From: Dehalococcoidia bacterium
GTDB lineage: Bacteria > Chloroflexota > Dehalococcoidia > UBA2979
Direction: 5' to 3'
NCBI GenBank assembly: GCA_965262725.1
Contig: OZ253555.1
Span: 2,144,001 to 2,208,000, forward strand
DNA length: 64,000 nucleotides
Part shown: positions 220 through 26,874 of the stretch, in pieces
Layout of the letters: each line of letters opens with the position of its first letter
Numbering within the stretch: position 1 is the stretch's first letter
Program-made: the position numbers and the translations under genes
Notes under the pieces: model-generated
The model's database searches: none
What the model saw: only the letters and a program-made list of their open reading frames with translations
What the model was told of the DNA's origin: nothing

Positions 220-525
220 TTAGCGGGTGAAGCGTCCGCCCCGGCTCTTGCGCCAGTCGGGATGCAGGCCGACGTATTCGATGAAGAACATCTTTTCCTG
301 CTCGTCGACCCGGTAGATCACCCGGCGCTCTCGGTCGACGGAGAACTGATAGTAGCCGCGGTACTCGCCCCGTAGCTGCTTGAGCTTCCCTGGAACGTGA
401 GTCGAGGGGGTGCGGCTCACGTGGTCGCGCAGAAACGCCAGCACCTCATCAAGGCGGCGTTCTCCCCAGGACTCGAACTCCCTCCAGTGAGCGTCCTCGA
501 TCTCAATCGACGGTGGGACGGCCAT
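220..525 (-). CDS. RelE/ParE-superfamily toxin-like protein, no adjacent antitoxin
   Basis: 101 aa; KLKQLRGEYRGYYQFSVDRERRVIYRVDE...IEYVGLH matches the RelE/YoeB pattern. The ATG lies inside the duplicated mutL fragment. Confidence 0.7.
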   Translation of the reverse strand: MAVPPSIEIEDAHWREFESWGERRLDEVLAFLRDHVSRTPSTHVPGKLKQLRGEYRGYYQFSVDRERRVIYRVDEQEKMFFIEYVGLHPDWRKSRGGRFTR

Positions 526-590
526 GCGGGCAGCTCTGCAGCGGTGCCGCCGCCTCCAGATCCTCGAGCAGCGCGCTGCTCCTCCGGCGC
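508..590 (-). repeat. Diverged direct copy of the mutL 3' end (1885-1969)
   Basis: cgacggtgggacggccatgcgggcagctctgcagcggtgccgccgcctccagatcctcgagcagcgcgctgctcctccggcgc aligns to mutL with about 10 mismatches and a 2-bp deletion by hand count. Encodes ..LEDLEAAAPLQSCPHGRPT vs LHDLEAAESPQSCPHGRPT. Confidence 0.9.
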
Positions 591-1603
591 TACTCCGGGA
601 AACCGTCCCGGATCTCCTCTCGCGCTTCGGCCAGCGCGGGGGTGTCTCCCAGGGAGAGCCCGATACCGAGCCCCTCCGCGATCGGCTCGACCAGCTGCGC
701 CGATCTCATCGAGTCGACGACGATCTCTCGAGGAAGCGCGTCGACACGCTCCAGCAGGGCCAGAAGCGTGTCCCGCTTCTCGGTTGCCGACGGGCGTGCG
801 CCCAGGATCTCGCCGCTCAGCACGAGCCCCGAGCGCCCGTCCACGACCAGAATCATGGTCGGGTAGTAGGGTCGTTCGCCCTTCCGTTCCTGAATCGGTG
901 TGCGCATATTGAAGCTGTCCCATTCCCAGACGGCCGCGCCCCGTGTGTCCGACCGCGCCACCTGCCGAAGCCGCTCCTGGCGCGGGTAGTCCGGGACGGG
1001 CGCCGTCGGCGGGAACGGCTCCCCCGCTCCCCACTCGCTCTGCTCCGGGCCGTCCCCGAGAGGCGGGAACGAGATGAGAGCGGGCCCGGGTTCCGGCGCA
1101 GCCGCCTCGTCCCGGCTCGCACGGTGCGATGCGACCTCGATGACGGCTCTCAGTGCCAGCGTCAGGAACGCGGCCTCGTCGGCGTCCAGGTACCAGGGCA
1201 CGTAGCCCGGCATGAGCCGCCGGAACAGCGGCCAGCGGCCCCGTCCCCTGTACCGCAGTCCCAGCGTGCGAATGACGGCGAGATCCGCGGCCGCGAGGTC
1301 CTCTCGGTCGGTGAGCAGCGCCGAGGCGGCATTCAGCATGTCGAACGCCTCCTCCGGATCCGGCTCCACCGCGTCCGCCATCGTCGCCAGGTAGGTCGCG
1401 AGCCCCTCGTCGCCGAGATAGAGGGCCAGGCCGTACTCGAGCCCGGCCGCCCCCATGACGACGCCGTGGCCCGTCTGGCCTCGAGAGGGATCCTCCACCG
1501 TCACCACGTCCTCATCGTCCATGACGTGCCACGGCTCCGCGCGGCAGAAGTCCGCGAACGCCGCGTGCAGATCGCGCCACTGCCCGGTTGTGGGGTCCGT
1601 CAC
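590..1603 (-). CDS. Conserved hypothetical protein (DUF7309/DUF6930-like)
   Basis: WRDLHAAFADFCRAEPW...VVMGAAGLEYGLALYLG...RGRGRWPLFRRLMPGYVPW...RPYYP motifs. GTG start at 1603 chosen; the ORF extends to 1750. Confidence 0.65.
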   Translation of the reverse strand: MTDPTTGQWRDLHAAFADFCRAEPWHVMDDEDVVTVEDPSRGQTGHGVVMGAAGLEYGLALYLGDEGLATYLATMADAVEPDPEEAFDMLNAASALLTDREDLAAADLAVIRTLGLRYRGRGRWPLFRRLMPGYVPWYLDADEAAFLTLALRAVIEVASHRASRDEAAAPEPGPALISFPPLGDGPEQSEWGAGEPFPPTAPVPDYPRQERLRQVARSDTRGAAVWEWDSFNMRTPIQERKGERPYYPTMILVVDGRSGLVLSGEILGARPSATEKRDTLLALLERVDALPREIVVDSMRSAQLVEPIAEGLGIGLSLGDTPALAEAREEIRDGFPE

Positions 1604-1825
1604 CTCGCAACGCCCCTCTCCCCTGCCGGTCTTGGAGGCCTCGCGGGCGCTCGCCGGGAGCTGCGCGCCGTCCCTCGCCACGCCCGTGTGCGGCGCGCCG
1701 TCGCCCCAGCGTAGACGGCCCGGGCCGGTACCAGCATCACCCCGCCGCACGGGAGGGAGCGCGGGGGCGACGGCGCCCCCGGCTGCGGCCGCGAGCGGGT
1801 GGAGGAGCCCGCAGCCGTGCGCGGC

Positions 1826-3688
1826 CTACCGGCGCTGCCCGGGCCTGCGGAAGGAGCGGTCGAGGGCGTCGCGGGTGAGGTGCACGACGGTGGGGCGGCC
1901 GTGCGGGCAGCTCTGCGGCGACTCCGCGGCCTCCAGGTCGTGGAGCAGCGCCCGCTGCTCCTCCGGCGCGAGCCGGTCGCCGGCCATCACGGAGGCGCGG
2001 CAGGCGAGGGTCGCCAGGGCGCGGTCGGGGCCGGTGAGGCGCTCCTCGGCGTCGAGGGCGTCGAGGTAGTCGACGAGCGCCCGCGCCGGATCGCGGCTCC
2101 CGAGCGCCGCCGGCACGGCGCGGAGCAGCACGGCGCTCCCGTCCATCTCCGTGAGCTCGAAGCCGAGCGCCTCGAGATCGGTGGAGACCCCGGCCGCGAG
2201 CGCCGCCTGGGCCGGCGCGAGCGCGACCATGACCGGATCGAGCAGCGGCTGCCGCTCGGGCCGCCCGCGCCCCTGCGCCGCCAGCACGCGCTCGTAGAGC
2301 ACGCGCTCGTGCGCGGCATGCTGGTCGACCAGGTAGAGGCCGTCCGGTCCCTCCGCGACCAGGTAGAGCCGGTCGAACTGCCCGAGCGGCCTGAGCGCCG
2401 GGAGCCGCTCCCCGAGCGGGAGCGTCACCCGACCCGCGTAGGGCTCGCCGGAGGGGAGCGCGGTCCGGGCGGAGGCGCCCGAGGGGTCCGACCCGTGGCC
2501 GGGGAGCGGGGGCGGGAGGTGGAACGAGCGCGACGGCTGCGCGGAGGCGAGCGCCTCGCGACCGCGGCGCGCGGCGGGGGCGCGGTCCTCCTCGCTGCCG
2601 GCGGGAGGCCCCTCGAGCCAGGGGGCCTCGGGGGCGGGAGCCCCGGCGAGCGCCTCGCGCACAGCCTCGGAGACGGTGGCGTAGACGAGCTGTTCGTGGC
2701 GGAAGCGCACCTCGGCCTTGCGCGGGTGGACGTTCACGTCGACCTGCTCGGGCGGGACCTCGACGCGCACGAGCGCGACCGGGTGGCGGCCGGCGGGCAT
2801 CAGCGAGCGGTAGGATTCCTCGATGGCGTGGACGAGCGCCCGCGAGGAGATGGTGCGGCCGTTCGCGACGAGGTGCAGGTAGCGCCGGCTCCCGCGGTGA
2901 AGCGTCGGGGGGCCGACCAGGCCGCCGACCACGCAGCGCGGCTCCTCGCCGCCGGGGTCCGTCGCCGGCAGGCCGCGGTCGGCTGAGGCGGGGAGCAGCA
3001 GCTCCGCGACGGCCGCGCCGTAGACGGCCGCGACCGCGTCCAGGGGCGCGCCCGTCCCCGGCGTGTTAAGCGACTGCCGCCCGTCGACGCGGAGGCGGAA
3101 GGAGACCCCGGGCCGGGCGAGCGCGTAGTCGGTCACGACCTCGCTCACCGCGCGCGCCTCCGCACGCGGTGAGCGCAGGAAGCGCCGGCGCGCCGGGAGG
3201 CGGGCGAAGAGATCCCGCACGTCGACGGTGGTGCCGGGGGCGGAGGCGGCGCTCCCGGGAGCCTCCGCGCTCCCCGAGCGGTAGCGGGCGATGACGGCGC
3301 CCTGCTCGCCCGCGGGACGCGTCGTGAGATCGACGTCGGCGGCGGCCGCGACGGCCGCGAGCGCCTCCCCCCGGAAGCCGAGCGTCCGGACGCGGAAGAG
3401 ATCGGAGTCGGTGGCGAGCTTCGAGGTCGCGTGGCGGAGGAAGGCGCGTGCGACCTCGCCCGGCGGGATCCCGCGCCCGTCGTCGCGCACCCGCATGCGC
3501 GAGGCTCCCCCCTCCTCGATCTCGACCTCGATGACCGCGGCGCCCGCGTCGAGCGCGTTCTCTAAGAGCTCCTTCACCACCGACGCGGGGCGCTCGATGA
3601 CCTCGCCCGCGGCGATGCGCGCCGCCACCTCGGGCGGGAGCACGCGGATGGGCGGGGGCCGGTCGGGCCCGGTCGCGTCAGTGCTCAT
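1826..3688 (-). CDS. mutL: DNA mismatch repair protein MutL
   Basis: IAAGEVIERPASVVKELLENALDAGA, GFRGEAL, VDVNVHP, DQHAAHERVLYE endonuclease motif, ACR, CPHGRP. Confidence 0.97.
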   Translation of the reverse strand: MSTDATGPDRPPPIRVLPPEVAARIAAGEVIERPASVVKELLENALDAGAAVIEVEIEEGGASRMRVRDDGRGIPPGEVARAFLRHATSKLATDSDLFRVRTLGFRGEALAAVAAAADVDLTTRPAGEQGAVIARYRSGSAEAPGSAASAPGTTVDVRDLFARLPARRRFLRSPRAEARAVSEVVTDYALARPGVSFRLRVDGRQSLNTPGTGAPLDAVAAVYGAAVAELLLPASADRGLPATDPGGEEPRCVVGGLVGPPTLHRGSRRYLHLVANGRTISSRALVHAIEESYRSLMPAGRHPVALVRVEVPPEQVDVNVHPRKAEVRFRHEQLVYATVSEAVREALAGAPAPEAPWLEGPPAGSEEDRAPAARRGREALASAQPSRSFHLPPPLPGHGSDPSGASARTALPSGEPYAGRVTLPLGERLPALRPLGQFDRLYLVAEGPDGLYLVDQHAAHERVLYERVLAAQGRGRPERQPLLDPVMVALAPAQAALAAGVSTDLEALGFELTEMDGSAVLLRAVPAALGSRDPARALVDYLDALDAEERLTGPDRALATLACRASVMAGDRLAPEEQRALLHDLEAAESPQSCPHGRPTVVHLTRDALDRSFRRPGQRR

Positions 3689-3716
3689 CTTGTCCGCCCC
3701 CCCTGGTGTACCTACG

Positions 3717-5201
3717 ATGACGGCGAGCCGAGCTCCCGACCGGCGCCTGGCCTGCGGCGCATGCGGGCGGGAGCGCACGGGGGAAGGGACGGCCCGCCTG
3801 CTCACACGGATCGCGGCGGCGACGCTCAGTGTGCTGCTGGTGGCGCTGGCCGCGAGCGACGTCCCGCGTCCCCCGGACGCGGAGGTCCTCCCCCCGCTGC
3901 CAGGCGCTGACGTCCTGCTGGCGCTGCCGCGAGCCGGCATCGAGCCCCACGAGCTCGCGCGGGCGCTTGCGCGACTCGGCCACGAGACGCTCCCCGTCCC
4001 CGGGCTCGCCGGCGCCGCGCGCGTGCGCGTCCCCGCCGGCACGGACCCCGGTGAGCTCGCCCGCGAGCTGGCCGCGAGTGGCCTGGCGCGCGCGGTCGAG
4101 GAGGACGGCATCGTCCGCGTGAGCCGCACCCCCGGCGACCCGCTCTACCCGGAGCTCCAGTCCTCCTATATGGAGGTCGTGAGGGCGCCCGAGGCGTGGG
4201 AGCGGACCGGCGGCTCGCGCGAGGTCGTCATCGCCGTCATCGACACCGGCATCGACTTCGGCCACCCCGACATGGCGCAGACGCTCTGGGTGAACGAGGA
4301 GGATGACTTCGGGAACCGGCGCGACGACGACACAAACGGCTGCGTCGACGACACCTACGGCTGCTCCTTCGTCTCGCTCGCGACGGCCGACCCCTCCTGC
4401 GGGTACCAGGTCGCCTCCCCGAACTGGCTCATCGACGACGACGAGGGGCACGGGACCTTCGTCGCCTCCATCGCCGCCGCCTCGGGCGACGACGACCGGG
4501 GCATCACCGGGGTCGCCTGGGAGACGCGGCTGCTCGCGGTGAAGGTGCTCGACTGCACGGGCACCGGGCGCATCTCGGACGCGGCGGCGGGGATCCGCTA
4601 CGCGGCCCGCGCGGGCGCCGACATCATCAACGTCTCCTTCGGATCGCCGCGGGACTCGCGCCTCTTGCGCGAGGCCATAGCGGCGGCGACTCAGGCCGGG
4701 GCGCTCGTCGTCGCCTCCGCCGGGAACGAGGGGCCGGGCGACGCGACCTTCCCGGCGCGCTACGAGTCGGTGCTCTCGGTCTCGGCGAGTGGGGCGCGCG
4801 GCGAGGACGGCGCCATCGACTACCGGCTCGCGGCCTCCTTCGCCTCGACGGGTGCCGGCGTCGACCTCTTCGCGCCGGGGCTCGATGTGGCGGGCGCGGT
4901 CCCGGAGCCCCTCTGCGGCCAGGGGACCTGGCGCTGCCACGGCGCCGAGCCCTACTCCGTCGCCTCGGGCTCCTCCTACGCGGCGCCGGTCGCGGCGGGG
5001 GCCGCGGCGCTGCTGCTCGCCGAGCGGCCCTGGCTCACGCCGGCGCTCGCGCGCGGCCTCATCGTGACGAGCGCCCACCGCCGGCCCCGCCGTCCGCCGA
5101 TCCTCGACATCGCGGCGATGCTCGACGCCGAGCTCTACGGCGCCGGGGTCGCCAGCACCTCCCGCCCCGGCGGGCCCGCGGCGCGCCCGCCCGAGCCCTA
5201 G
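3717..5201 (+). CDS. Secreted S8 (subtilisin-like) serine peptidase
   Basis: Hydrophobic N-terminal segment; triad VIDTG / HGTFVA / SGSSYAAP; oxyanion ASAGN. Start approximate. Confidence 0.9.
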   Translation: MTASRAPDRRLACGACGRERTGEGTARLLTRIAAATLSVLLVALAASDVPRPPDAEVLPPLPGADVLLALPRAGIEPHELARALARLGHETLPVPGLAGAARVRVPAGTDPGELARELAASGLARAVEEDGIVRVSRTPGDPLYPELQSSYMEVVRAPEAWERTGGSREVVIAVIDTGIDFGHPDMAQTLWVNEEDDFGNRRDDDTNGCVDDTYGCSFVSLATADPSCGYQVASPNWLIDDDEGHGTFVASIAAASGDDDRGITGVAWETRLLAVKVLDCTGTGRISDAAAGIRYAARAGADIINVSFGSPRDSRLLREAIAAATQAGALVVASAGNEGPGDATFPARYESVLSVSASGARGEDGAIDYRLAASFASTGAGVDLFAPGLDVAGAVPEPLCGQGTWRCHGAEPYSVASGSSYAAPVAAGAAALLLAERPWLTPALARGLIVTSAHRRPRRPPILDIAAMLDAELYGAGVASTSRPGGPAARPPEP

Positions 5202-7954: not shown

Positions 7955-8036
7955 CGTCGTCGTCGGCTGCTCCAGCCAGCAGTCGGCACCGCGGTCTCAG
8001 ACCGCACTCCAGGGGAAGCAGGGGCAGGGCTACCCG

Positions 8037-8220
8037 TTGACCGTGGAGATCGTCTCTTGGACCTTGCCTATCGGCCGGAGCCGTGGCGGATCCTCGGTGA
8101 GATCGAGGCTGACGTCGCGCTGCTGCGGGAGGCAACTGAACCGCCCCCCGACGTACCCGAGAGAATCGATGTCGACTCCGCCCCGTGGTCTACCGCTGGC
8201 GCGGATGCGACGCGCCTGAG
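8037..8220 (+). pseudogene. N-terminal fragment of an endonuclease/exonuclease/phosphatase-family protein, frameshifted
   Basis: LTVEIVSW/(fs)LAYRPEPWRILGEIEADVALLREA resembles the EEP start motifs (SWN ... DVALLQE); ends abruptly. Confidence 0.5.
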
Positions 8221-8284
8221 CGCCACGCAAGAGCATCACGGGGTCACTATTGAGTAGTTTTACTCAGTATCGTATCTTGGCTCC

Positions 8285-9220
8285 ATGGATCGATTCCAGC
8301 GCGAGAGTGTGGCAACCCTCGTCTCGCGGCTCGAGGAGCCGCCGAACCGGCTGATCGCGGTCTTCGGGCCTCGACAGACCGGCAAGACCACGATGGTGCA
8401 CCAGGCACTTGCCCAAACCGATCGGCCGAACCAGTACCTCGCGGTCGATGAGCCGGCGCCGTCGGCTCCCGGCATCTCTGTCGTTGCGCCCATCGAAGAC
8501 ACTGCCCCACTTGCCGAGGAGCGCGACAGCGCCTGGCTCGTTCGCACCTGGGAGCACGCCCGGCAACGGGCGCAGGAATCGCCACAGGGCTTCGTGCTCG
8601 TCTTCGATGAGATCCAGAAGATCCCGGACTGGTCCGCCACCATCAAGGGACTCTGGGATGCCGACCGCGCCCGGAGCGTGCCCCTGCACGTCGTGGTTCT
8701 CGGCTCGGCCCCGCTGCCGATGCAGTCAGGGCTGAGCGAGAGTCTGGCCGGCCGGTTCGAACCGATCCGCATCACGCACTGGGCGTTCCCCGAGATGTCC
8801 GCAGCGTTCGACGTGACCCTCGACGAGTACCTCTACTTCGGCGGCTACCCGGGCGCCGCCACCCTCATCAGGGATGAGGAGCGGTGGCGGGACTACATCC
8901 TGCACGCGCTTGTCGAGCCCCATCTCGAGCGCGACCTCCTCGCGATGACCCGAGTGGACAAGCCGGCGTTGCTCAAGAACCTGTTCGAGCTGGGGGCGGC
9001 CTATTCCGGGCAGGTTCTCTCGTACAACAAGATGCTCGGGCAGCTGCTGGACGCCGGCAACACGACGACGCTGGCCCGCTATCTCCAGCTGCTGTCGACG
9101 GCTGGTTTGCTCACGGGACTGCCGAAGCACTCAGAGAGCTCGCAGCGCCGCAGGGCGTCGAGCCCCAAGCTCAACGTCCTCAACACGGCTCTCATGACGG
9201 CCGCGTCCGGCTACTCCGTC
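8285..9220 (+). pseudogene. AAA_14/DUF4143-type ATPase, 3'-truncated (reading frame continues into unrelated sequence to 9526)
   Basis: GPRQTGKTT Walker A, VFDEIQK Walker B, LGSAPL, ESLAGRF, GGYPGA. Family-like sequence stops after ALMTAASGYS. Confidence 0.8.
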
Positions 9221-9244
9221 GGTGCCCGCGGATCCACTCGGAAT

Positions 9245-9430
9245 CGCCCCCGGGAAACTCGCCGATGGGCCACGCTCTGCGGCGTGCCAACCGGTGGCCC
9301 ATCGGCGGAGGCGCCGGCATCCAACTGGCCGGACCTAGACGAGGGCATCAGTGTCGATGGCTTGCTCGCGGGCCGTCCGTCGGCCGAGAGCCAAGAGTCC
9401 TTCCAGCGCTGGCTCGAGGCCAAGCGGGCC
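9245..9430 (+). pseudogene. DUF2442-family C-terminal fragment
   Basis: IGGGAGI/(fs)WPDLDEGISVDGLLAGRPSAESQESFQRWL matches the DUF2442 signature GIHWPDLDEDISV. Confidence 0.7.
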
Positions 9431-9565
9431 CGGCTGCCCCGTGGGGTGCGACCTCCCGCTTCAGCCAGTCGTCAGTCCCCGAGATTAGGATCAGGCTGGG
9501 CGAGGGTCAGCCCTAGCAGAGGTTGATTAGCCTCTACTGCCTAGCAAGGAGCTGTTGACTCGACG

Positions 9566-10365: not shown

Positions 10366-10378
10366 GTCGTGTGCGGCG

Positions 10379-11050: not shown

Positions 11051-11082
11051 TCTGTCACCTCCCGACTCGCCAGCGAGCGATG

Positions 11083-11161
11083 CGACCCGGTGCCGTCTCG
11101 CTCAACGGGGAGTGAGCCTGTCACAGTGTAGAGTTCGGGGGTTCGAGTCCCTCCGGGTCCA
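11083..11161 (+). pseudogene. Degenerate tRNA-like sequence (Asp-GTC-like)
   Basis: Good T-arm GGGGG-TTCGAGT-CCCTC; acceptor CGACCCG/CGGGTCC pairs 6/7; CTGTCAC loop. Anticodon stem does not pair and there is no CCA. Confidence 0.4.
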
Positions 11162-11168
11162 CGATTCT

Positions 11169-11194
11169 GGCCATCGCGTACTGTACTGCGAACT
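11169..11194 (+). repeat. Repeat motif copy 1 (ggccatcgcgtactgtactgcgaact)
   Basis: 18-bp core cgtactgtactgcgaact identical to 12979-12996; 23/26 overall. Confidence 0.85.
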
Positions 11195-11233
11195 GGTGTG
11201 GAGCCACCCTGTGATGTGGTCACGCCAGTCCAT
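11195..11233 (-). pseudogene. Possible first codons of a DUF433-family gene cut at the repeat motif
   Basis: MDWRDHIT resembles DUF433 N-termini; only 8 residues support it. Confidence 0.3.
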
Positions 11234-14751: not shown

Positions 14752-14789
14752 CCGGTCCGGATGTGAGAATCGGGGTGGATTGACGCGGC

Positions 14790-15320: not shown

Positions 15321-15338
15321 CGAAGATGGGAGACGGTC

Positions 15339-17375: not shown

Positions 17376-17913
17376 GGAGAGAGCCCTCCCCTGAAGCGCC
17401 CGGCGACACGACGCCGGGCCCACCGATCCGGGCCGGATCCTCGCTCGCCGTGAGGCGCCTCGCGATGCGCACGCCCTCGGCGGCGGTGAGGTTCCCGACC
17501 ACGCGCCCGTCGATCCAGATCTGGGGGGCGCGCTCGCAGCTCCCGTTGCACTGCTGGAGCTCGATCTGGAGGCGGCCGTCCGCCGTCTTCTCGCCGAGCT
17601 CCGTCCCGAGCACCGCGAGCATCGCGTCGCGGATGCCGGCGCCGTTTCGGAGCCGGCACGCCGGGCCGCTGCACCAGCCGACCACGACCTGCGCGGGCGG
17701 CTCGACGCGGAAGTCGGCGTAGTAGGTGACGGTCCCGTAGACGTGCGCCGGCGGGAGCTTCAGCTGCTCCCCGACGACCTCCATCGCCTCGGCGGGGATG
17801 TAGCCGTAGCGGTGCTGCACGCGGTGCAGCGCCTCGAGCAGGTCGGCGTCGTCGGGGCGGAGGTCTGAGACCAGTGCCCGGATCTCGGCGGTCGCCTCGG
17901 TCTCGAGCGGCAT
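17368..17913 (-). CDS. nuoE: NuoE/HydC-like 2Fe-2S subunit
   Basis: LHRVQHRYGYIP, VYGTVTYY, CSGPAC, CNGSC. Confidence 0.9.
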   Translation of the reverse strand: MPLETEATAEIRALVSDLRPDDADLLEALHRVQHRYGYIPAEAMEVVGEQLKLPPAHVYGTVTYYADFRVEPPAQVVVGWCSGPACRLRNGAGIRDAMLAVLGTELGEKTADGRLQIELQQCNGSCERAPQIWIDGRVVGNLTAAEGVRIARRLTASEDPARIGGPGVVSPGASGEGSLRG

Positions 17914-18318
17914 CGGCTCTCCCGACCCGGCGCGCGCTCGCGCGCCGCCTCGTTTCAGGCGCAACTATCGCGCGCCGTTCGTGCGCGTTCAAGGAGCAGC
18001 GACGCGCGCGAGGGGAACTGGCCGCCCGGGGGCCGGGGCTCCGTCCCGGGTCCCGCCCGCCGCTGCGCCCTGCTCGAGCGCGGCCGAGGGCGGCGACGGT
18101 GTCGACGCCGAGGGCCGGCGAGCCGCCGGTGGCCCCGGGCTCGCGCAGGGATGTGACGGCGGGGGTCCCGGCAGCGGAACGACCGCGCCGGAGATCGCAT
18201 ATGTGTCGGTGATAGGCTGCGCCCCGCCTCTCGGAGTGCCGGTGGAGTCCGCAGCGGCGGGCGCGGCGCGGCGCCACGGGCGATCCGAGCGTGCCGGCAC
18301 GTCCGGGAAGGACCCCCT

Positions 18319-21300
18319 GTGAGACCGGGAGCGGCACCGCGGTACGGAACCCTGGGCGCCCTCCTGCTGGCGCTTGTGCTCATCGCCGGCCCCGCTCCAG
18401 CCTCCGCCAATGCCGGCGCCGCTACCGGCACCGTCGACGTGCACGTGCGCGTCTGGCAGGACGTGAGCGACCCCCTGCGCCTCTTCATCAGCGCTCGCCC
18501 CGCGGGTGGCCGCTGGGACACGCTGGGGACCATTCGCCTCCTCCTCGACGACGGGCTCAGCAGCAGCCGCGACGACCGCTTCGGCGACGTCACGGTCGAC
18601 GGCGTGGAGGTTCGCGTCTCGCAGCACGTGCACGAGCCGTTTCGGATCCACGTCGGCGCGCGCGTCACGGGCGGCGACCGGGACGCGCTGGGAGAGATCC
18701 GCCTCCTCCTCGACGACGGGCACAGCCCCGGCGGGCACTACCGCTACGGCGACATCACGCTCCGCGTGCCCGTCCCCGACCCCGGTCCCCCCGTGACCGT
18801 CTCGCCCGGCGGCGAGGACGTGCCGCGCCTCGCAGCCCTGACGATCGCCTTCCGCGATCCTCCGCCCCGGGCAGACGGCGGCTCGCTCGTCTCCATCGAT
18901 CCGCCCATCGAGGGCTCGTTCGCCTGGCTCGACGACCGCACGCTGCTCTTCCAGCCGGACTTCCCCGGGTGGCAGCGCGGCCAGGCGTACCGGGTCGTCG
19001 TGGACGCCGGCGCGGCGGGCCTTGCGGCCGACCACGTGCACGCGTTCACCGCCGAGGGCCGGCTCGAGGTCTCCTACGTCATACCGGGGGACGGGGACGA
19101 AGAGGTCCCCGCGAGCGCCCGGATCCTCGTCCAGTTCAGCCGCTCGGTGGCGCCCCTGACGGTGTTGCAGGAGGGCCCCGCGCCTGCGGTGCTCGAGTTC
19201 GACCCGCCGCTTGCGGGTCGGGGCGAGTGGCTCAACACCTCGCTCTACCGCTTCATCCCGACCGATCTCCGGCCGCACACGGAGTACACCGTGCGCGTCC
19301 GCTCAGGCCTGACCTCCGCCTCGGACGGAGTGCTCGGCTCCGACTACAGCTGGAGCTTCACGACGATCCAGCCTGCCGTCGCGGGCTTCGAGCCCCAGGA
19401 CGGCGCCATCCACGTGGAGCCGGATGCCCACGTCGTCGTGACCTTCAACCAGCCGATGGACCACTCCTCCGTGGAGGCGGGACTCTCGCTCAGCGAGGCG
19501 TCCGGGGAGGCGCCGAAGGAACCGATCGCGAGCTCGTTCGCGTGGAGTGAGGACTCCACCGTGGTCACGCTCATCCCCGACGAGCCGCTCGCGCTCGGCA
19601 CCGACTACGAGGTGGTCGCCCGGGGCGGCCTCAGCGGCGCCGACGGCGGTGCGACGCTGGCCGAGCGCTCGTCCGGCTTCAGGACCGTCCATCCGCCGCG
19701 GATCACCGGCACCTCTCCTCAGGACGGCGAGGAGAACGCGTACTGCTGCACCATCCGCATCTCCTACAACAACCCGATGGACCGCGAGTCCTTCCCCGGG
19801 CGCATCCTGGTCAACGGCTCCCCCGTCGAGGAACGCTCCTTGGGGAGGAGCGACAGCGCGGTCCGGATCTACGGCGCAGTCCAGCCCGGGGGCCACTACA
19901 CGGTGCGACTCGAGGAGGGGGTTCGCGACCGTGGCGGGCGGGTCCTCCCGGCCTACGAGTTCTCCTTCACCACGCGTCCCCCGCGCGTCGCTCTCCGCCT
20001 CCAGGCCGGGGACGCCGTCGCGATCTTCCCGTCGGGCGACGAGCAGATCCTGGAGTACCTCGCGACGAGCGCAGAGGAGGTCCAATTCCTGCTGCACCGG
20101 CTCTCAGGCGAGGAGGCCGACGCCCTCCTGCGCCGGGGCTTCATCGACGACGACTTCGCGCCCGGCAGCGTTCCGATCCGGGAGTGGACGGAGGCGATCG
20201 ACGACGACGACGAAGACGGCGGCACGCCGAGGGTCCGCGCCACCTCCCTCGGGGGCGGCGAGCCGCTGGCGGAGGACCACTACCTCCTGAGCGCGACGGC
20301 GCTGGGACCGATCAGGGATGACCGGGATCCGGAGAATCTTCCGCCGTCCCTGCGTGGCGCGCTCCCGGATCCGACGTGGGGGCGGGACTCCTCCCGGCGT
20401 GAGCTCGTGCTCAGCGTCGTGGACACGACGATCGTGACCAAGCTCGCCCACGACGAGCTGCTCGTGTGGGCGCTCGACTACGAGAGCGGGGAGCCGCTCG
20501 CCCACGTGGAGGTGCGCGCCGTTTCCGCCGGGGATCCCCCCTACAGCACCGCCGGGAGCGAGGTCACGGACGAAGACGGGCTCGCGCGGTTCGCCATTCC
20601 CCCCGAACGCGGCCACTACTGGAGTCCCTACGGCGACTACCTGGTCCGCATCGACGGTGGCGGTCGCACCGGCGTGGCGCTCACCTGGTGGGAGAGCGGA
20701 AGCCGTCCGTATCGCCTGGGGGTGCCCGTCTCCGGGTACTTCGCCGGGCCGCTGGGCCATCTCTACACCGAGCGGCCCATCTACCGGCCGGGCGAGACCG
20801 TCTTCTACAAGGGCGTCGTGCGCGAGGACGACGACGCCTCCTACTCCGTGCCCGATCCCGGCTCGGAGTTCACCGTCCGGATCCGCGACCCGCGCTACCG
20901 CTGGCTGACGGAGACGAGCGCTCCCGTCAACGCGCTCGGCGCCTTCGTCGGGGAACTCCCGCTTCCGGCCAACGCCCCCACCGGCAGGTACTCGATCTGG
21001 TTGCGTGACGGCGGGGGACGCCACGTCACGTCGACGTCCTTCACCGTGGCCGAGTTCCGCGCCCCCGAGTTCGAGGTCGACGTGGAGGCGGCCTCCGCGA
21101 GCTACATCGCCGGCGAGCAGATCGCGATCGAGGCGGAGGCACGCTTCTTCTTCGGGGGTCCCGTCGTGGATGCGGACGTCACCTGGGCGGCGCACTCCTC
21201 GCCGACGTTCTTCCGGGCCGAGGGCTACGAGGGCTACTCCTTCTCCGAGTACCGCCGGAGCGACGTGGATCCCCGGCGCGCGCGTGGCAGCGCTAAGACG

Positions 21301-24300
21301 GACGAGGCGGGTTCTGCCGAGATCGACGTCCCCTCGGTCCTCGAGACCGGCGAGGGGACGCAGCTCTTCACGATCAGCACGACCGTGACCGATCAGAGCG
21401 CGCAGGCCGTGGCGGGGAGCACGACGGTCACGGTCCACCCCGCCGCCTGGTACGCGGGTATCCGGACCGACTCCTACGTCGCCACGGCCGGCGAGCCGGT
21501 GACGGTCCGCCTCGTCACCGTCGACACCGCCGGACGGGCGGCGCCGGACCGGCCGGTCACGGTGCGCACCGTCGAGCGCGAGTGGATCACGACGCTCGAG
21601 AAGACGGAGGGCGGCGACTACCGCTACCGGAGCGAGCTGCGCGAGACCGAGGTCGAGGTGCGCTCCGTCACGACCGGCGAGGACGGCGAGACGTCGACGG
21701 CGTTCACGCCGCCGTCGGCGGGGAGCTACCTGCTCGTCGCCGAGTCGACCGACGAGCAGGGGCGCGTGGCGCGCTCGGCCCGCTCGCTGTGGGTGAGCGG
21801 CTCGGGGCACGCGCGGTGGTTCGTGCGCGACGACAACCGTATCGAGCTCGTCGCCGACCGTGAGAGCTACGAGGTCGGTGACGTCGCCCGGGTGCTCGTC
21901 CCCGCCCCCTTCGCGGGTGCGACGGGCCTCGTCACCGTCGAGCGCGGGCGTGTGCTGAGCGCCGAGGTCCGCACCTTCGACACCAACAGCGAGGTGCTGC
22001 TCATCCCCATCGAGCAGGGCCACCTGCCCAACGTCTACGTCGGCGTCGTCCTCTACCGGCCCCCCACCGAGGAGGATCCGCTGCCGCGCTACCGCATCGG
22101 TTACGTCAACCTCCCGGTCGCGACGGATCCGGTCGCGCTCGACGTGCGCGTCGAGCCGGATCGGGAGCAGGCGATCCCGGGAGAGACGGTGCGCTACGAC
22201 GTCCACGTCACCGACTCCGAGGGACGCGGCGTCGCGGCCGAGGTCTCGGTCGCGATCGTCGACGAGGCGGTCCTCTCGCTGGCGGCTGAGGTGGGCCCGG
22301 ACGGCCTGGGTGCGTTCTGGAGCGAGCGCCCGCTCGGTGTCAGGACGGCATGGTCGCGCGCGCCGGCGGAGCGCCAGGGCGGGGGCGACTCCGACATGGC
22401 GGTCGCCGAACCGGCCGCCGCCCCGGCCGCCGCCCGGGCCGAGTCGGCCGCGCCCGGGGATGACGCCGCGCGCATCCGCTCCGACTTCCGGTACACGGCA
22501 CTGTGGCTGGGGCAGCTCACGACCGATGCGGATGGCCGGGCCAGCTTCGAGCTGGAACTCCCCGACAACGCGACGACGTGGCGGGCCACGGCGCGGGCCG
22601 TCACCACCGAGACGCAGGTCGGCCGGGGTGAGAGCGAGCTCCTGGTCACGCAGCCGCTGCTGGTGCGACCGGCCCTTCCCCGTTTCCTGCGCGTCGGCGA
22701 TCAGGTCTCGCTGCGCACGCTCGTCCGGAACGGCACGCAGGAGGCACGGGACCTGGTGGTCACGATCGAGGCGGAGGGCGTGGTCCTCGACGCGGACGCC
22801 ACGCAGTCGGCGACGGTCGAGTCAGGCGACTCCGTCCTCTTCTCCTGGCCCGCCCGCGCCGTCTCCGAGGGCACGGCCACGGTGCGCTTCCGCGCGACCG
22901 CCACCGGCGGCTACGGCGACGCGGTCGAGCTGAGCCTTCCCGTCTACCTCGACGTGACGCCTGAGACGACGGCGACCGGGGGCGTCGTCGACGATTCCCC
23001 CGTCATCGAGGCGCTCTACCTGCCGGACTACGTCATCACCGGGCAGGGCTCGCTCGAGATCTCGCTCCAGGGGTCGCTGGTGGGCGCGCTCGATGAGGAG
23101 CTGCGTGCCTTCAGGCCCTACACGTGGGAGTCGAACGAGAGGATCGCGAGCCGCGTCGTCGCCACCGTCGCCGTCTCGCGCGCGAGCCCGAATGGCCTGA
23201 CGGAGGCGCAGGAGAGCCAGCTTCGGGCCGACATCGAGAGCCTCGCCGGGGCGCAGAACTACGACGGCGGCTGGGCCTGGTGCCGCGAGTGCTCGGGGAC
23301 GAACATCTGGGTCACCGGCTGGGTGCTGCTCGCCTTCGGGGAGGCGCGGGACGCCGGGTACGCCGTCCCGGGGCACGAGTACTCGCGCACCGTGGACCTC
23401 ATCACGGAGCACGTGAGCCGCGAGACGGACGTCGAGCGCCCCGCAGACCCCAACCAGCACGCCTTCCTGCTCTACGCGCTCGCGAGCGCCGCGAACGAGG
23501 GCGGAACGGTGAGCGACCTCGCCAGGGAGCAGGCCGCCATCGGGCGAGAGCTCGTGAACGAGCAGAGGGCGCAGCTTGCGAATTGGGGCCGGGCCTACGC
23601 GCTGCTCGCTCTCCTCGCGAGCGGCCACGACCCGGGCGACGGGGCGGTGCGAGCTCTCCTGAACGACCTGGCCGCGAGCACCGTCGCGAGCGCGAACGGC
23701 AACCACTGGGAGGATCCGCACGTGCCCGGGTCGATGCACAACACGAGCGTCCGCGCGACCGCGCTCGTGCTGCGCGCCCTGACCGAGGCCGCCCCGCGGC
23801 ATCCCCTCATCGAGGAGACCGTCCGCTGGCTCGTGCTGGCGCGCTCCGAGAGGCGCTGGAAGACGTCGGTGGAGCGGGCGCAGGGCATGGCCTCCCTCGG
23901 GGCGTTCGCGGAGCTCACCGGCGAGACCCGCGGCGCCTACGACTACCAGGTGCTGCTCAACACCCGGCGCGTCCTCGACGGCGACTTCGACGTGCCGGCG
24001 GGCGACCGCTCAGACGGTGTCGCGCTGCCCCTCGGGCAGCTGCCGGTAGGCGAGGTGAGCCTGGTGCAGATCGGGCGGGGCACCGGCCAGGAGGGTCGCC
24101 TCTACTACGCCCTCAACCTGCGCTACGTCACGCCCGCGAAGGAGATCGGGGCGCTCAACCGCGGCTTCGCCGTCTCGCGGCGCTACTCGCTGCTGGGCGA
24201 CCCGGAGACGCCCGTCACCGGCGCCTCGCCGGGAGACATCGTGCGCGTGACGGTGACCGTGGTCGCCCCCGCCGATCGCCTCTTCGCCCGCGTCGAGGAC

Positions 24301-24669
24301 TTCCTGCCCGCCGGCCTCGAGCCCGTCGACCCGCGGCTCGACATCGTGCCGGAGTGGCTCAGGGATCAGCTGCGGCGCGAGCAGGCGGAGGCGCGCCAGA
24401 GGAATGCCCCCTCCTACGTCGCGCCGTGGTACGGCTGGTACTACAACCCCTGGGACCAGGTGGATCTCCGCGACGACCGGCTCGTCCTGCTCGCGTCCCG
24501 GCTGCCCGAGGGCGTCCACGAGTACGTCTACTACGCCCGGGCGACCACGCCCGGCGACTTCTTCGTGGCCCCCGCGCGCGGCGAGGAGACCTACCTCCCC
24601 GAGGTCTTCGGCCGCAGCGACAGCGGCCGCTTCGCGGTCGCGGAGACCGGGCAGGGATCCGCGCCGTGA
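18319..24669 (+). CDS. Alpha-2-macroglobulin-family protein with N-terminal Ig-like (Big_5) domains
   Basis: 2116 aa; signal peptide; YTERPIYRPGETV, FTVAEFRAPEFEV, VAIVDEAVLSL, LPDNATTWRATA, LPRFLRVGD, QNYDGGWAW, YYARATTPGDF, YLPEVFGRS. Confidence 0.93.
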   Translation: MRPGAAPRYGTLGALLLALVLIAGPAPASANAGAATGTVDVHVRVWQDVSDPLRLFISARPAGGRWDTLGTIRLLLDDGLSSSRDDRFGDVTVDGVEVRVSQHVHEPFRIHVGARVTGGDRDALGEIRLLLDDGHSPGGHYRYGDITLRVPVPDPGPPVTVSPGGEDVPRLAALTIAFRDPPPRADGGSLVSIDPPIEGSFAWLDDRTLLFQPDFPGWQRGQAYRVVVDAGAAGLAADHVHAFTAEGRLEVSYVIPGDGDEEVPASARILVQFSRSVAPLTVLQEGPAPAVLEFDPPLAGRGEWLNTSLYRFIPTDLRPHTEYTVRVRSGLTSASDGVLGSDYSWSFTTIQPAVAGFEPQDGAIHVEPDAHVVVTFNQPMDHSSVEAGLSLSEASGEAPKEPIASSFAWSEDSTVVTLIPDEPLALGTDYEVVARGGLSGADGGATLAERSSGFRTVHPPRITGTSPQDGEENAYCCTIRISYNNPMDRESFPGRILVNGSPVEERSLGRSDSAVRIYGAVQPGGHYTVRLEEGVRDRGGRVLPAYEFSFTTRPPRVALRLQAGDAVAIFPSGDEQILEYLATSAEEVQFLLHRLSGEEADALLRRGFIDDDFAPGSVPIREWTEAIDDDDEDGGTPRVRATSLGGGEPLAEDHYLLSATALGPIRDDRDPENLPPSLRGALPDPTWGRDSSRRELVLSVVDTTIVTKLAHDELLVWALDYESGEPLAHVEVRAVSAGDPPYSTAGSEVTDEDGLARFAIPPERGHYWSPYGDYLVRIDGGGRTGVALTWWESGSRPYRLGVPVSGYFAGPLGHLYTERPIYRPGETVFYKGVVREDDDASYSVPDPGSEFTVRIRDPRYRWLTETSAPVNALGAFVGELPLPANAPTGRYSIWLRDGGGRHVTSTSFTVAEFRAPEFEVDVEAASASYIAGEQIAIEAEARFFFGGPVVDADVTWAAHSSPTFFRAEGYEGYSFSEYRRSDVDPRRARGSAKTDEAGSAEIDVPSVLETGEGTQLFTISTTVTDQSAQAVAGSTTVTVHPAAWYAGIRTDSYVATAGEPVTVRLVTVDTAGRAAPDRPVTVRTVEREWITTLEKTEGGDYRYRSELRETEVEVRSVTTGEDGETSTAFTPPSAGSYLLVAESTDEQGRVARSARSLWVSGSGHARWFVRDDNRIELVADRESYEVGDVARVLVPAPFAGATGLVTVERGRVLSAEVRTFDTNSEVLLIPIEQGHLPNVYVGVVLYRPPTEEDPLPRYRIGYVNLPVATDPVALDVRVEPDREQAIPGETVRYDVHVTDSEGRGVAAEVSVAIVDEAVLSLAAEVGPDGLGAFWSERPLGVRTAWSRAPAERQGGGDSDMAVAEPAAAPAAARAESAAPGDDAARIRSDFRYTALWLGQLTTDADGRASFELELPDNATTWRATARAVTTETQVGRGESELLVTQPLLVRPALPRFLRVGDQVSLRTLVRNGTQEARDLVVTIEAEGVVLDADATQSATVESGDSVLFSWPARAVSEGTATVRFRATATGGYGDAVELSLPVYLDVTPETTATGGVVDDSPVIEALYLPDYVITGQGSLEISLQGSLVGALDEELRAFRPYTWESNERIASRVVATVAVSRASPNGLTEAQESQLRADIESLAGAQNYDGGWAWCRECSGTNIWVTGWVLLAFGEARDAGYAVPGHEYSRTVDLITEHVSRETDVERPADPNQHAFLLYALASAANEGGTVSDLAREQAAIGRELVNEQRAQLANWGRAYALLALLASGHDPGDGAVRALLNDLAASTVASANGNHWEDPHVPGSMHNTSVRATALVLRALTEAAPRHPLIEETVRWLVLARSERRWKTSVERAQGMASLGAFAELTGETRGAYDYQVLLNTRRVLDGDFDVPAGDRSDGVALPLGQLPVGEVSLVQIGRGTGQEGRLYYALNLRYVTPAKEIGALNRGFAVSRRYSLLGDPETPVTGASPGDIVRVTVTVVAPADRLFARVEDFLPAGLEPVDPRLDIVPEWLRDQLRREQAEARQRNAPSYVAPWYGWYYNPWDQVDLRDDRLVLLASRLPEGVHEYVYYARATTPGDFFVAPARGEETYLPEVFGRSDSGRFAVAETGQGSAP

Positions 24670-24765: not shown

Positions 24766-24918
24766 TCACTCGCCGCTCGGCCCCGCCTCGAGCGCGCCGG
24801 CGGGCTCCTCCGCCGAAGGACGCGCGATGGCGCTGATCCCGAGTCCCAGGCGCGCACGCCAGCGCGGCGCCGGCGAGCACCACGCTGATGAGGATCGGGG
24901 CGTGCAGGCCCAGGCGTA
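24766..24918 (-). repeat. Displaced, frameshifted copy of the 3' end of the flippase-like gene (24820-24918 matches 25888-25986)
   Basis: acgcgcgatggcgctgatcccgagtcccaggcg...cgtgcaggcccaggcgta aligns over about 99 bp with two 1-bp indels; continues to its own stop at 24766 (..LGLGISAIARPSAEEPAGALEAGPSGE*). Confidence 0.9.
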
Positions 24919-25099
24919 CCCCACAGCGCGTCGCAGGTAGCACTTGCAGATTGTGCAATCCCAGGGCGCCAGCCGATAATCGAACCTGTGAATCACCACT
25001 TTCCATGCACCACCATGGGGCGGGATCGCCACGGTCATTGAGCTACGCTGGGCGGGCCGGGGGGATCTCAGGCGTCGAGAGACATGAGGAGGCCGGGGC

Positions 25100-25729
25100 G
25101 TGATGTGCAACCAGGATGTTCCGTCGGCGGGCGCGCCTCGCCTCTACGAGATGACGATCTCGCTCATGGACGCCGGCGTGGATATCGAGCGGCGCGTGTT
25201 GGTGCCGGAGCACTATACGCTGACCGATTTGCACCTCATTATCCAGGCCGCCATGGGCTGGACTGATGCGCACCTGCATGAGTTCACCTCGCGCGACGGG
25301 ACCATGTACGGCGAACCCCGGCTCGACGAGGCCAACTTTGTCGATGAGGTGCGTGTGCTGCTCGGAGAGGTGCTTCGCGAGCCCGGGGACGCGCTGCGCT
25401 ATGTGTACGACTTCGGTGACTACTGGGTGCACCGCGTCGAACTCGCTGCGATCCGGGCCTCCGACGGGCCGGCTTGGCCTTCCTTGATCGGCGGTCGCGG
25501 CGCATGTCCCCCCGAGGACTGCGGCGGCGGCTCCGCGTACCGGGAATTGTGTGAAGAGCTGGCCAACCCGGACTCACCCGAATACGAGGAGTTCGCGGAG
25601 TGGGCCGCCGAGATGATGATCGACCTCCCGCTCGACGTGCACGCCTTCGACCTCGACGCGGCGATCGAGGCCGTGCGCCGCCTCACGGGAGCCGCTGGTC
25701 GCAGCGGGCCGACCGGGTCCCGCAGCTAG
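25100..25729 (+). CDS. Plasmid pRiA4b ORF-3 family protein
   Basis: TLTDLHLIIQAAMGWTDAHLHEF, YVYDFGDYWVH, GACPPEDCGG. Confidence 0.9.
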   Translation: MMCNQDVPSAGAPRLYEMTISLMDAGVDIERRVLVPEHYTLTDLHLIIQAAMGWTDAHLHEFTSRDGTMYGEPRLDEANFVDEVRVLLGEVLREPGDALRYVYDFGDYWVHRVELAAIRASDGPAWPSLIGGRGACPPEDCGGGSAYRELCEELANPDSPEYEEFAEWAAEMMIDLPLDVHAFDLDAAIEAVRRLTGAAGRSGPTGSRS

Positions 25730-25803
25730 CTACCCGAGCGAGCGCTGCTGGCGTGGCCGGGGCGGCGGCATCCCGCCGGGCGCTCGCCGGCACCCCCGAT
25801 GAA

Positions 25804-26874
25804 TCACGTAACGTGATGACCGTTGTCGGGACGGCCAGCGGTGGGTCTTCCCGTTCCGTTCCCGGGGCGAGTGTCCTCCCTCGGGGCACGCGCGATGGCG
25901 GTGATCCCGAGGCCCAGGCGCCACGCCAGCGCGGCGCCGGCGAGCACCACGCTGACGAGGATCAGGGCGTGGAGTCCCAGGGCGTAGGCGGTGGCGTCGG
26001 CCGTGGACACCCCGAAGGCGACTGCGACCTCGCGAGCGAAGAACTCGAAGGGGCCGATCCCCCCGGCGGTGGAGGGAGCGGCGATGGCGAGGTTCGCGGC
26101 GCCGGCGATCGCGAGGTAGATGGGCGCCGGGAGACCGAGCCCGAAGGCGAGCCCTATCAGCCAGTACGAGGCCGCCTCCAGGCCCCAGGACGCAGCCGTC
26201 AGCCAGACGGCCGCCCACCAGTCGCGCGGGCCGCGGAGCGTGGTGAGCCCCGCGAGCAGCCCCGTTGCGATCGCCCGGGCCGCCGGTTGCAGCCTCGGGG
26301 ACAGCAGCCCCGCCAGCCGCTCGAGCATCGCACCGAGCCTCCCGGCCCAGCCCGGCCGCTGCGAGAGCATCACGAGGAGCGCCGTGACGAGCACGAACGC
26401 CCCGAGCCCCGCCGCCGCGAGTAGCCGCAGGGCATCGCTCCCGCCGGCGAGGGCGATCGTGGCGGCGAGGAAGACGGCCAGCACCAGCCCGTCGAGCGCC
26501 CGCTCCACCACGATCGTCCCTATGGCGGCGCTCCGGCTCGTTCCGTGGCTGCGCTTGATGAGGAGCGCGCGCAGCACCTCGCCGGCGCGGGCCGGGAGCA
26601 CGTTGTTGGCGGCGTAGCCGATCACCATCGGTGCGAGGGTCCCCCTGGCCCCGAGGGGGAGCTCCGGCCAGAGGATCCGCCGCCAGCGCGCGGCGCGGAG
26701 CCAGAGCGCCGCGGCGTAGACGGGGAGCGATGCCAGCAGCCAGCGCCCGTCCACGTTCCGGAGTGACTCCCAGAGCTCGTCCCGGTCGACGCCGGCGAAG
26801 AGCAGCCCGAGGAAGAGCGCGCTGACGCCGAGCCCGAGCCAGACCCGCACGCCGCGGCTCCCGGGCACGCTCAC
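25804..26874 (-). CDS. Lysylphosphatidylglycerol-synthase TM / flippase-like membrane protein
   Basis: LRAARW, GYAANNVLPARAGEVLR, VVERALD, PSTAGGIGPFE. GTG overlaps the upstream stop (GTGA). Confidence 0.88.
   Translation of the reverse strand: MSVPGSRGVRVWLGLGVSALFLGLLFAGVDRDELWESLRNVDGRWLLASLPVYAAALWLRAARWRRILWPELPLGARGTLAPMVIGYAANNVLPARAGEVLRALLIKRSHGTSRSAAIGTIVVERALDGLVLAVFLAATIALAGGSDALRLLAAAGLGAFVLVTALLVMLSQRPGWAGRLGAMLERLAGLLSPRLQPAARAIATGLLAGLTTLRGPRDWWAAVWLTAASWGLEAASYWLIGLAFGLGLPAPIYLAIAGAANLAIAAPSTAGGIGPFEFFAREVAVAFGVSTADATAYALGLHALILVSVVLAGAALAWRLGLGITAIARAPREDTRPGNGTGRPTAGRPDNGHHVT

Follow-up and report, generated by a model that had tools for sequence, protein, structure and literature searches.

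When a conserved bacterial gene is followed by an accessory gene and then by a decayed copy of the conserved gene's own 3' part, does this layout reveal a working route of gene acquisition or the scar of an old insertion? The question is raised by a stretch of 64,000 nt (hereafter the window) of contig OZ253555.1 from a Dehalococcoidia bacterium, which is very GC-rich (0.57-0.79 per kb) and shows the layout twice: at site 1, mutL is followed by a DUF6930 gene and a tail copy of mutL, and at site 2, a flippase-like gene is followed by a pRiA4b ORF-3 family gene and a tail copy of the flippase-like gene. The initial annotation had seen in this layout an acquisition route, integrase-independent or acting in trans, in which cargo arrives attached to a replacement gene end. 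The analysis presented here points, with a probability of about 0.6, to scars of old insertions with long target duplication and to no working device; the layout is best read as an insertion with a 76-113 bp target duplication or, equivalently, as a single crossover in the gene tail.

Both tails were recovered by a BLASTN comparison of the window with itself. Indeed, (i) the 83-bp mutL copy behind the DUF6930 gene is present as first described (508-590 against 1885-1969; 85.9% over 85 columns, E 2.8e-20), and (ii) the pair at site 2 is real, but its tail, given earlier as about 99 bp (24820-24918), proved longer (24806-24918 against 25874-25986; 88.6% over 114 columns, E 2.7e-33) and continues to a stop codon. 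Tail 1 is mutL-derived but is not a copy of the very gene end: it is sub-terminal, the last 59 bp of mutL (1826-1884) not being duplicated, and at site 2 the repeat ends 70 bp short of the present stop. Each tail lies downstream of its parent gene and in the parent's orientation; the shared polarity reported earlier is true of the tails alone, as among the cargos only the DUF6930 gene is on the strand of its neighbour and the pRiA4b gene is convergent with the flippase-like gene. The names of the genes hold in Pfam and NCBIfam, from which the domain labels were taken (MutL; DUF7309 plus DUF6930; LPG_synthase_TM, the flippase-like domain of NCBIfam; PRiA4_ORF3). Over the whole 64 kb, 20 families of direct repeats of at least 45 nt were found, all at most 74% identical except three pairs. 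The third of these pairs (11848-11920 against 14679-14751, 92%) belongs to a low-GC island and is unlike sites 1 and 2 in layout, being an isolated fragment upstream of an intact AlbA_2 gene; it resembles what remains of an AlbA_2-type gene after replacement more than a scar left by a 3' tail.

For comparison, 80 loci (1,245,458 bases) were obtained by one contig scan with the Nuo51-type gene (15339-17423), which is located between both sites; eight loci are related to the window (L001-L007 and L024) and 72 (about 1.1 Mb) come from other lineages. When these loci were compared with themselves, two direct pairs fell within the limits set on length (60-300 bp), identity (at least 85%) and spacing (300-6000 bp); they belong to the close relatives L002 and L005, and the 72 loci of other lineages gave none. 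Since qualifying pairs are confined to close relatives, the repeat pairs are not due to chance and their density is a trait of the lineage. Outside these limits, pairs spaced less than 300 bp were seen in L047 and L077, a 723-bp repeat in L078 and an inverted repeat in L065.

The related loci, all from uncultured Chloroflexota (Dehalococcoidia), encode Nuo51 proteins that are 88% (L001, L002), 81% (L003) and 66-68% (L004-L007, L024) identical to that of the window. According to BLASTN and TBLASTN, a block of PMT, flippase-like, 2Fe-2S, Nuo51, mutS and mutL genes is conserved across them, with variable DNA sitting at the junctions between these genes; in the window, the conserved genes are all on the minus strand (Pfam). 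The distance from the flippase-like gene to the 2Fe-2S gene is 62 bp in L001 and 156 bp in L003 as against 7.9 kb in the window, where tail 2, the pRiA4b gene and an alpha-2-macroglobulin-like gene lie in between. In L003, mutS, an S8 peptidase gene and mutL are ordered as in the window and are followed by convergent genes, including one of CoA-ligase type, with no DUF6930 gene. The repeat sequence occurs once, without insert, in L003 for the window mutL, in L001 and L003 for the flippase-like gene and in L007 for the mutL of L005, and no homologue of the toxin encoded at site 1, of either cargo, of the macroglobulin gene or of the island genes was detected in the 80 loci by BLASTN or TBLASTN. 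With empty sites in genus-level relatives, both cargos are insertions relative to these relatives, in line with the initial annotation, and the comparison of related genomes that it had proposed gave empty sites (L001, L003, L007) as well as an alternative cargo, a leucine-rich-repeat (LRR) gene in L005.

This alternative cargo represents an independent case. In L005, a chromosome-level record whose MutL is 56% identical to that of the window, mutL is followed by the LRR gene (650 codons, same strand), by a 76-bp direct copy of the L005 mutL end, 2,027 bp downstream (97%, one 1-bp indel), and directly by a gene with an LppM domain. The LRR stop codon (18450-18452) overlaps the first two bases of the tail copy, and the copy itself retains the mutL stop beside the ancestral neighbour. 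L007 has the empty site: LppM lies directly behind mutL, and its MutL and LppM proteins are 86% and 72% identical to those of L005. Relative to L007, both copies in L005 carry L005-specific bases. In L005, the repeat begins at the CPHGRP codons and reaches the mutL stop, and that of the window starts 60 bp upstream of these codons and ends just past them, so that the two overlap by about 30 bp; the C-terminus of the window MutL bears this CPHGRP motif and a terminal F-x-R-type motif. A mutL tail copy is found in two (window and L005) of the four genomes with a visible mutL end, as against L003 and L007, and the cargo differs between the two. The layout of gene, cargo and tail thus recurs independently at mutL. 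The features of the window are listed in Table 1.

Table 1. Coordinates of the features of sites 1 and 2 and of the third repeat pair in the window.
Feature	Position	Strand	Remarks
ORF (open reading frame) running off the left window edge	2..199	-	translation only; candidate antitoxin
YoeB/RelE-like toxin ORF	220..525	-	Pfam YoeB_toxin at 25.9 bits, under the cut-off of 27; NCBIfam
Site 1 tail copy R2 (tail 1)	508..590	-	83 bp of sub-terminal mutL, 86%; 2-bp deletion (frameshift)
Cargo 1, DUF7309+DUF6930 gene	590..1750	-	Pfam; ORF of 386 aa; stop 590-592; homologue lengths (331-340 aa) point to a start near 1600
Last 59 bp of mutL, stop included	1826..1884	-	no counterpart in the tail copy; resembles the L003 mutL end
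mutL	1826..4129	-	longest ORF, intact; Pfam MutL_C, DNA_mis_repair, HATPase_c_3; stop 1826-1828; true start probably further inside
Site 1 upstream copy R1	1885..1969	-	within mutL, 60-144 bp before the stop
Third pair, copy A	11848-11920	-	within Schlafen/AlbA_2 gene, 271 bp before its stop
Third pair, copy B	14679-14751	-	isolated 73-bp fragment, 92%; low-GC island edge
Alpha-2-macroglobulin-like gene	18319..24669	+	6.3 kb, 2,116 aa; Big_5 domains; Pfam; between tail 2 and 2Fe-2S gene
Tail 2 continuation	24766..24805	-	ancestral-type C-terminal coding stretch (putative); own stop 24766-24768
Site 2 tail copy R2 (tail 2)	24806..24918	-	113 bp, 89%; two 1-bp indels
Cargo 2, pRiA4b ORF-3 family gene	25100..25729	+	Pfam PRiA4_ORF3 1e-48; convergent with flippase-like gene
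Present last 70 bp of flippase-like gene	25804..25873	-	23 codons and stop; no counterpart in L001 and L003
Flippase-like/LPG_synthase_TM gene	25804..26874	-	Pfam; NCBIfam TIGR00374; intact, 356 aa (public gene calls); stop 25804-25806
Site 2 upstream copy R1	25874..25986	-	within flippase-like gene

At site 2, where the order is GT39-type PMT gene, flippase-like gene, pRiA4b gene, tail 2 and macroglobulin-like gene, the tail itself indicates which gene end is the older. Its continuation encodes a short acidic, Gly/Ala-rich end that aligns with the native end in L003, with the stop in register, and that also resembles the C-termini of the homologues P0031 and P0032. The present 70-bp end of the flippase-like gene, for its part, matches the end of no relative. 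Because an ancestral-type end with its stop persists downstream and the present end has no match among the relatives, tail 2 would be the displaced original gene end; together with the mutL stop kept in the downstream copy of L005, this bears out the earlier view of the downstream copy as a displaced gene end. The further claim that the replacement end is foreign was not borne out, as mere reading on into the inserted DNA would account for the new end as well as an allele of foreign origin.

The two copies were also said to differ largely by synonymous or conservative changes and to look like alleles from another strain. In fact, of 21 mismatches over both sites, nine are synonymous and 12 are not: site 1 has 10 (codon positions 2/2/6; five synonymous, five not) plus the 2-bp deletion, and site 2 has 11 (4/3/4; four synonymous, seven not) plus two 1-bp indels. 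All three tails (sites 1 and 2 and L005) carry frameshifts. Where the copies of site 2 differ, the gene copy agrees with L001 about seven times and the tail about twice (alignment read by eye), and most of the differences are unique to the tail; at site 1, the outgroup comparison was uninformative, with three bases common to the gene copy and L003 and two to the tail and L003 (also read by eye). At 78-84% nucleotide identity, the window and its relatives are too distant to polarise most copy differences. Since the mismatches are spread over codon positions, all tails are frameshifted and the site-2 differences are mostly tail-specific, decay after duplication, as expected of an unselected copy, is enough to explain the divergence, and alleles from another strain are not required.

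The following course of events is proposed. Accessory DNA would have entered the 3' part of a conserved gene in an ancestor of the species-level population, and recombination left 76-113 bp of target at either side of the insert. The copy attached to the gene body stayed in service, and the orphaned downstream copy has decayed through substitutions and frameshifts. The crossover could have been made by host homologous recombination or by a recombinase encoded elsewhere; the layout would come either from one crossover of the gene tail with a circle that bears a homologous piece of tail or from an insertion with staggered target duplication, which sequence alone does not tell apart. No recombinase gene was found in the 1.07-kb unit of site 2, in the 2.0-kb unit of L005 or in the visible part of site 1, and none of the two complete units holds any mobility gene; at site 1, the DNA past tail 1 runs off the window. 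The earlier statement that no integrase is visible holds for the 64 kb, where the sole recombinase-type domain is a Mutator transposase fragment (9541-10434), and no integrase was found in the eight related loci around these sites either, but the window ends 507 bp past tail 1.

Insertion with long target duplication reportedly goes back to Nobusato et al. in 2000. As described by Furuta et al. 2010 (PMC2853133), the class comprises repeats of more than 30 bp around inserts of less than 20 kb without mobility genes, and a related genome has the site without the insert; in many cases the repeats run across the stop of a flanking gene, which survives. Restriction-modification genes were the basis of its definition, and no mechanism has been settled for it. 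The sites described here are like it in their direct repeats (83-85 and 113-114 bp in the window, 76 bp in L005), the single repeat at the empty site, the insert without integrase or transposase and the intact flanking gene. They differ from it in that the class was found mostly in naturally competent bacteria and with nearly identical repeats, whereas the sites described here belong to an uncultured Dehalococcoidia lineage and include two old pairs (86-89%) out of three, one event does not account for site 1, and the cargos (DUF7309/DUF6930, PRiA4_ORF3 and LRR) are not restriction-modification genes.

Several points weigh against this assignment. Long target duplication lacks an explained mechanism, so that the term denotes a class more readily than a process, and site 1 is not accommodated by one event. 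Support for the tail 2 continuation is modest, its score against L003 being reached by 5 of 500 shuffles and that against L001 not being significant. The two mutL hits out of four, overlapping on the approximately 30 bp of the CPHGRP codons, hint at a site preference that a purely homology-driven or random process does not predict. The junctions are tidier than random breakage: the cargo stop straddles the junction in both same-strand cases (590-592 in the window and 18450-18452 in L005), and the opposite edge of tail 1 holds the toxin start; abutting or overlapping genes are, however, frequent in this genome in any case. Finally, an integrase could lie left of position 1, beyond the window.

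Site 1 would have arisen in two events, because the final 59 bp of mutL are missing from its orphan copy, which is joined to a toxin-antitoxin module. Either the toxin-antitoxin module first removed the mutL end and a later crossover brought a complete end together with DUF6930, or a later deletion took the rest of the orphan copy. Tail 1 ends just past the CPHGRP codons, and in the mutL frame a stop follows one codon later. The toxin ATG and the first six codons (508-525) lie inside the tail in a frame other than that of mutL, and the ATG is owed to a C-to-T difference from mutL. At the other edge, the natural stop codon of the DUF6930 gene adjoins the tail copy, and homologues terminate at the same residue position. 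The window is without a homologue of the LppM or CoA-ligase genes that are found behind mutL in L003, L005 and L007; the far end of the insertion behind mutL is therefore beyond the window. The ORF at the left edge gave no Pfam match.

These traits of site 1 bear on another explanation, namely that the units are remnants of site-specific integrative elements targeting conserved codons near gene 3' ends, with the tails as attR-type sites and the integrase module lost or supplied in trans by a related element, as in cis-mobilisable elements (CIMEs) accreted in tandem at mutL. The recurrence at mutL with overlapping repeat blocks and the tidy ORF-edge junctions would suit such elements, as would the L005 identity block, which runs from the motif to the gene stop like classical att sites in tRNA genes, and the position of tail 1 between foreign DUF6930 and toxin-antitoxin segments, like an accretion junction. 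On the other hand, no integrase occurs in any unit or in the 64 kb, the blocks are long (76-113 bp), the homology at both window sites extends upstream of the presumed core and stops short of the present gene end, the reverse of a classical attP, no motif common to the six junctions, or to the mutL and flippase-gene repeats, was recognised by eye, and the units are fixed in the population rather than variable. Site-specific elements are thus regarded as a possible source of the layout, on balance an unlikely one.

The same comparison can be made with described elements. CIMEs and tandem accretion (PMC5704250) are alike in having integrase-less units and direct repeats that include the 3' part of a target gene, and the site 1 repeat between two foreign segments resembles accretion; unlike in CIMEs, no related integrase-bearing element was seen here, the repeats exceed the usual length of att identity blocks, and at sites 1 and 2 the arms of homology point the wrong way. 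Tycheposons (bioRxiv 10.1101/2020.12.28.424599) share the partial target copies that border successive insertions and the degenerate remnants that persist in islands, but the targets here are protein-coding, and the window has no tyrosine recombinase, replication module or tRNA. In Streptococcus pyogenes, mutL is also targeted by a mobile element, SpyCI (PMC3430984), but SpyCI is phage-like with functions of its own, enters at the 5' end and toggles mismatch repair, whereas here the 3' end is concerned and mutL is intact. This 5'-end case was the only one found in a literature search for integration at an end of mutL, and a search on CIME, accretion and fda jointly gave nothing. In kind, the layout is not a new route of acquisition: it fits long target duplication (PMC2853133) and resembles CIMEs, the integrase-less remnants flanked by att sites (PMC5704250). 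The insertions are fixed in the sampled close assemblies.

This fixation was established from proteins encoded at the junctions, close assemblies being compared via protein clusters at 90% identity among the matches listed. The flippase-like protein has the new C-terminus in 14 of the 14 cluster members listed and examined (95.2-99.4% identical), and its end differs in the relatives that come next (85, 82 and 81%). For the DUF6930 protein, 14 relatives are listed at 95.6-99%, and the macroglobulin relatives are 94.7-96.4% identical; overall, junction-encoded proteins were found at 95-100% identity in more than 12 other assemblies. The exact 101-aa toxin is encoded on 17 contigs, along with a variant with one change at residue 2, and shares small contigs of 9,511 and 14,425 bp with the DUF6930 protein. 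Because junction-encoded proteins recur across assemblies, the insertions are fixed in the species-level population, that is, in all sampled close assemblies, and are absent from the sister species; neither is recent or visibly mobile. The same data answer the concern, raised by the initial annotation itself, that two strain alleles were joined in tandem during metagenome assembly. The source is evidently metagenome-assembled and the lineage is known only from such assemblies, but the junction proteins, with the toxin letter for letter, recur in many independent assemblies, the new flippase-like end is present in every cluster member examined, DUF6930 and toxin are found together on the two small contigs, the source contig has 3.67 Mb and L005 shows the same layout in a chromosome-level record. 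Such an artefact is extremely improbable.

The pRiA4b cassette has a history of its own. The pRiA4b protein of the window is alone in its 90% cluster and shares 82-85.5% identity with the full-length members (202-208 aa) of an allele cluster from other assemblies, whose flanking flippase-like, macroglobulin and DUF6930 proteins are 95-99% identical; members of this allele cluster and of the flippase cluster come from contigs of the same size in eight cases. Furthermore, in the two closest strains (P0289 and P0281), one of the two and two of the three differences in the flippase protein fall in its last 23 residues, beside the cargo. As the divergence of pRiA4b is discordant with its flanks and the flippase differences cluster at the cargo side, recombination with diverged donors has touched the cassette; the divergent protein itself suggests that an allele was replaced or that only the cassette has evolved fast. 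Homology-facilitated illegitimate recombination is not known to yield duplications, rather than deletions, as a rule. It is nevertheless conceivable that such recombination, or allelic replacement, with DNA of a related lineage already carrying the cargo behind the gene produced the layout, one end crossing within the gene and the other joining illegitimately upstream of the resident end, so that the resident tail is left over. The final layout, with a resident orphan tail, would be the same, and the discordant pRiA4b protein and the differences near the cargo in the two strains show that recombination with diverged donors occurs at the locus. Besides the expected deletion, the mismatches between the copies count against this course, not being enriched at third positions as allelic divergence would have it, and it is held to be distinctly unlikely.

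A functional repeat system deserves next to no credence. The candidates would be the template and variable repeats of a diversity-generating retroelement, silent gene-conversion cassettes and integron-type attC sites. A near-copy of the 3' part of a gene just downstream is also how such retroelements are laid out, and units of an ORF plus a repeat superficially recall integron cassettes. Nevertheless, neither a reverse transcriptase nor an integron integrase is encoded in the window, the tail base is A at only one of 10 (site 1) and two of 11 (site 2) mismatches, each site has just one tail, with its reading frame shifted, and the single-strand folding of the six copies is ordinary (z -1.85 to +1.88). 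A diversity-generating retroelement (no reverse transcriptase domain, the base A counts above) and an integron cassette (no attC-like fold, no IntI) were rejected on these grounds. An insertion sequence or transposon was also rejected, as inverted repeats around the three units are at background only and the units hold no transposase, and so was a tRNA or tmRNA gene as integration target, with none in the window. A third flippase-gene tail upstream of the 2Fe-2S gene (18058-18091) was discarded, its score being reached by 16 of 300 shuffles.

Regarding the cargos, the GC content at third codon positions (GC3) is 0.86 for the DUF6930 gene, against 0.94 for mutL, and 0.84 for the pRiA4b gene; both cargos (0.84-0.86) are below their neighbours (0.92-0.95). 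They are not related to each other (BLASTP E 0.43). Both had been taken for passenger-type proteins of mobile elements, which holds in part: the pRiA4b ORF-3 family is plasmid-associated, with matches in 2,749 of 72,556 plasmid records, all below 60% identity, but the DUF6930 protein gave no plasmid match. PADLOC gave no match for the toxin, DUF6930, pRiA4b or LRR proteins. In an Atlas search, the DUF6930 protein retrieved its own family only (scores 0.85), with no functional clue. A tandem repeat of 165 bp (18432-18761) lies within the macroglobulin-like gene; none of the seven relatives in which this junction is visible has the gene there, and no repeat flanking it was found.

Other variable DNA was observed in and around the conserved block. 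In brief, a low-GC island (8000-15338; 0.57-0.68) lies between mutS and Nuo51 and encodes an AAA_14/DUF4143 ATPase, the Mutator transposase fragment, a Schlafen/AlbA_2 protein and unknowns; the ATPase matches the candidate defence family PDC-S01 (E 7e-125). As the proteins of two island genes (8285-9526 and 10379-11050) are singletons in the protein collection, the island is recent and strain-specific. The same junction holds Aminotran_5, DUF4007, PAPS-reductase and PLD-helicase genes in L001 and a DUF4276 gene in L007; in L003, a 138-bp imperfect palindrome (12079-12216; 81%) lies in the Nuo51-mutS spacer, at the island position of other genomes; the palindrome gave no counterpart in the window, and no sequence common to this spacer and the island borders of the window was found above noise. 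A subtilase (S8) gene on the opposite strand lies between mutS and mutL in the window (about 4000-5201) and in L003 (15023-16909), and mutS adjoins mutL without it in L005 and L007. The segment 28885-34066 (HAD hydrolase, SBP_bac_5, two unknown ORFs and a short-chain dehydrogenase) is a variable junction without repeats; it is absent from L003, with 69 bp from PMT to a DUF2298 gene, and a different 4.9 kb is present there in L001. The direct repeat of L002 (9195-9262 against 12166-12233; 68 bp, 90%) corresponds to the beginning of a small Cys-rich ORF (9044-9742) and is a 5'-end fragment, not a tail; its second copy lies 3 kb downstream, past endonuclease/phosphatase-family and DAO oxidoreductase genes.

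A more far-reaching idea, which the recurrence at mutL and the compact make-up of the units keep in play but which appears rather unlikely, is that the CPHGRP stretch of mutL and similar tails serve as landing pads for recombinase-less units of an ORF plus a tail, which would move as circles by host recombination or with a recombinase in trans, as a protein-gene analogue of integron cassettes or CIMEs; the event at site 1 may then have restored a mutL truncated by the toxin-antitoxin insertion. If this were true, the gain of cassettes would be linked to cycles of loss and rescue of mismatch repair. Should the recurrence at mutL reflect a true site preference, it would point to recombinase-independent or trans-mobilised addition of single genes behind conserved genes.

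In summary, these sites are old, fixed scars of a known class and are not evidence of a new active acquisition route; a rearrangement class that is known and mechanistically unexplained is extended to new cargos and a new phylum, and no new system is added. The tails place both insertions later than the split from the sister species but earlier than the expansion of the present population. Gene gain in uncultured, streamlined or symbiotic bacteria mostly has no visible vehicle, and orphaned gene tails provide a cheap, sequence-only marker of the place and order in which accessory genes entered.

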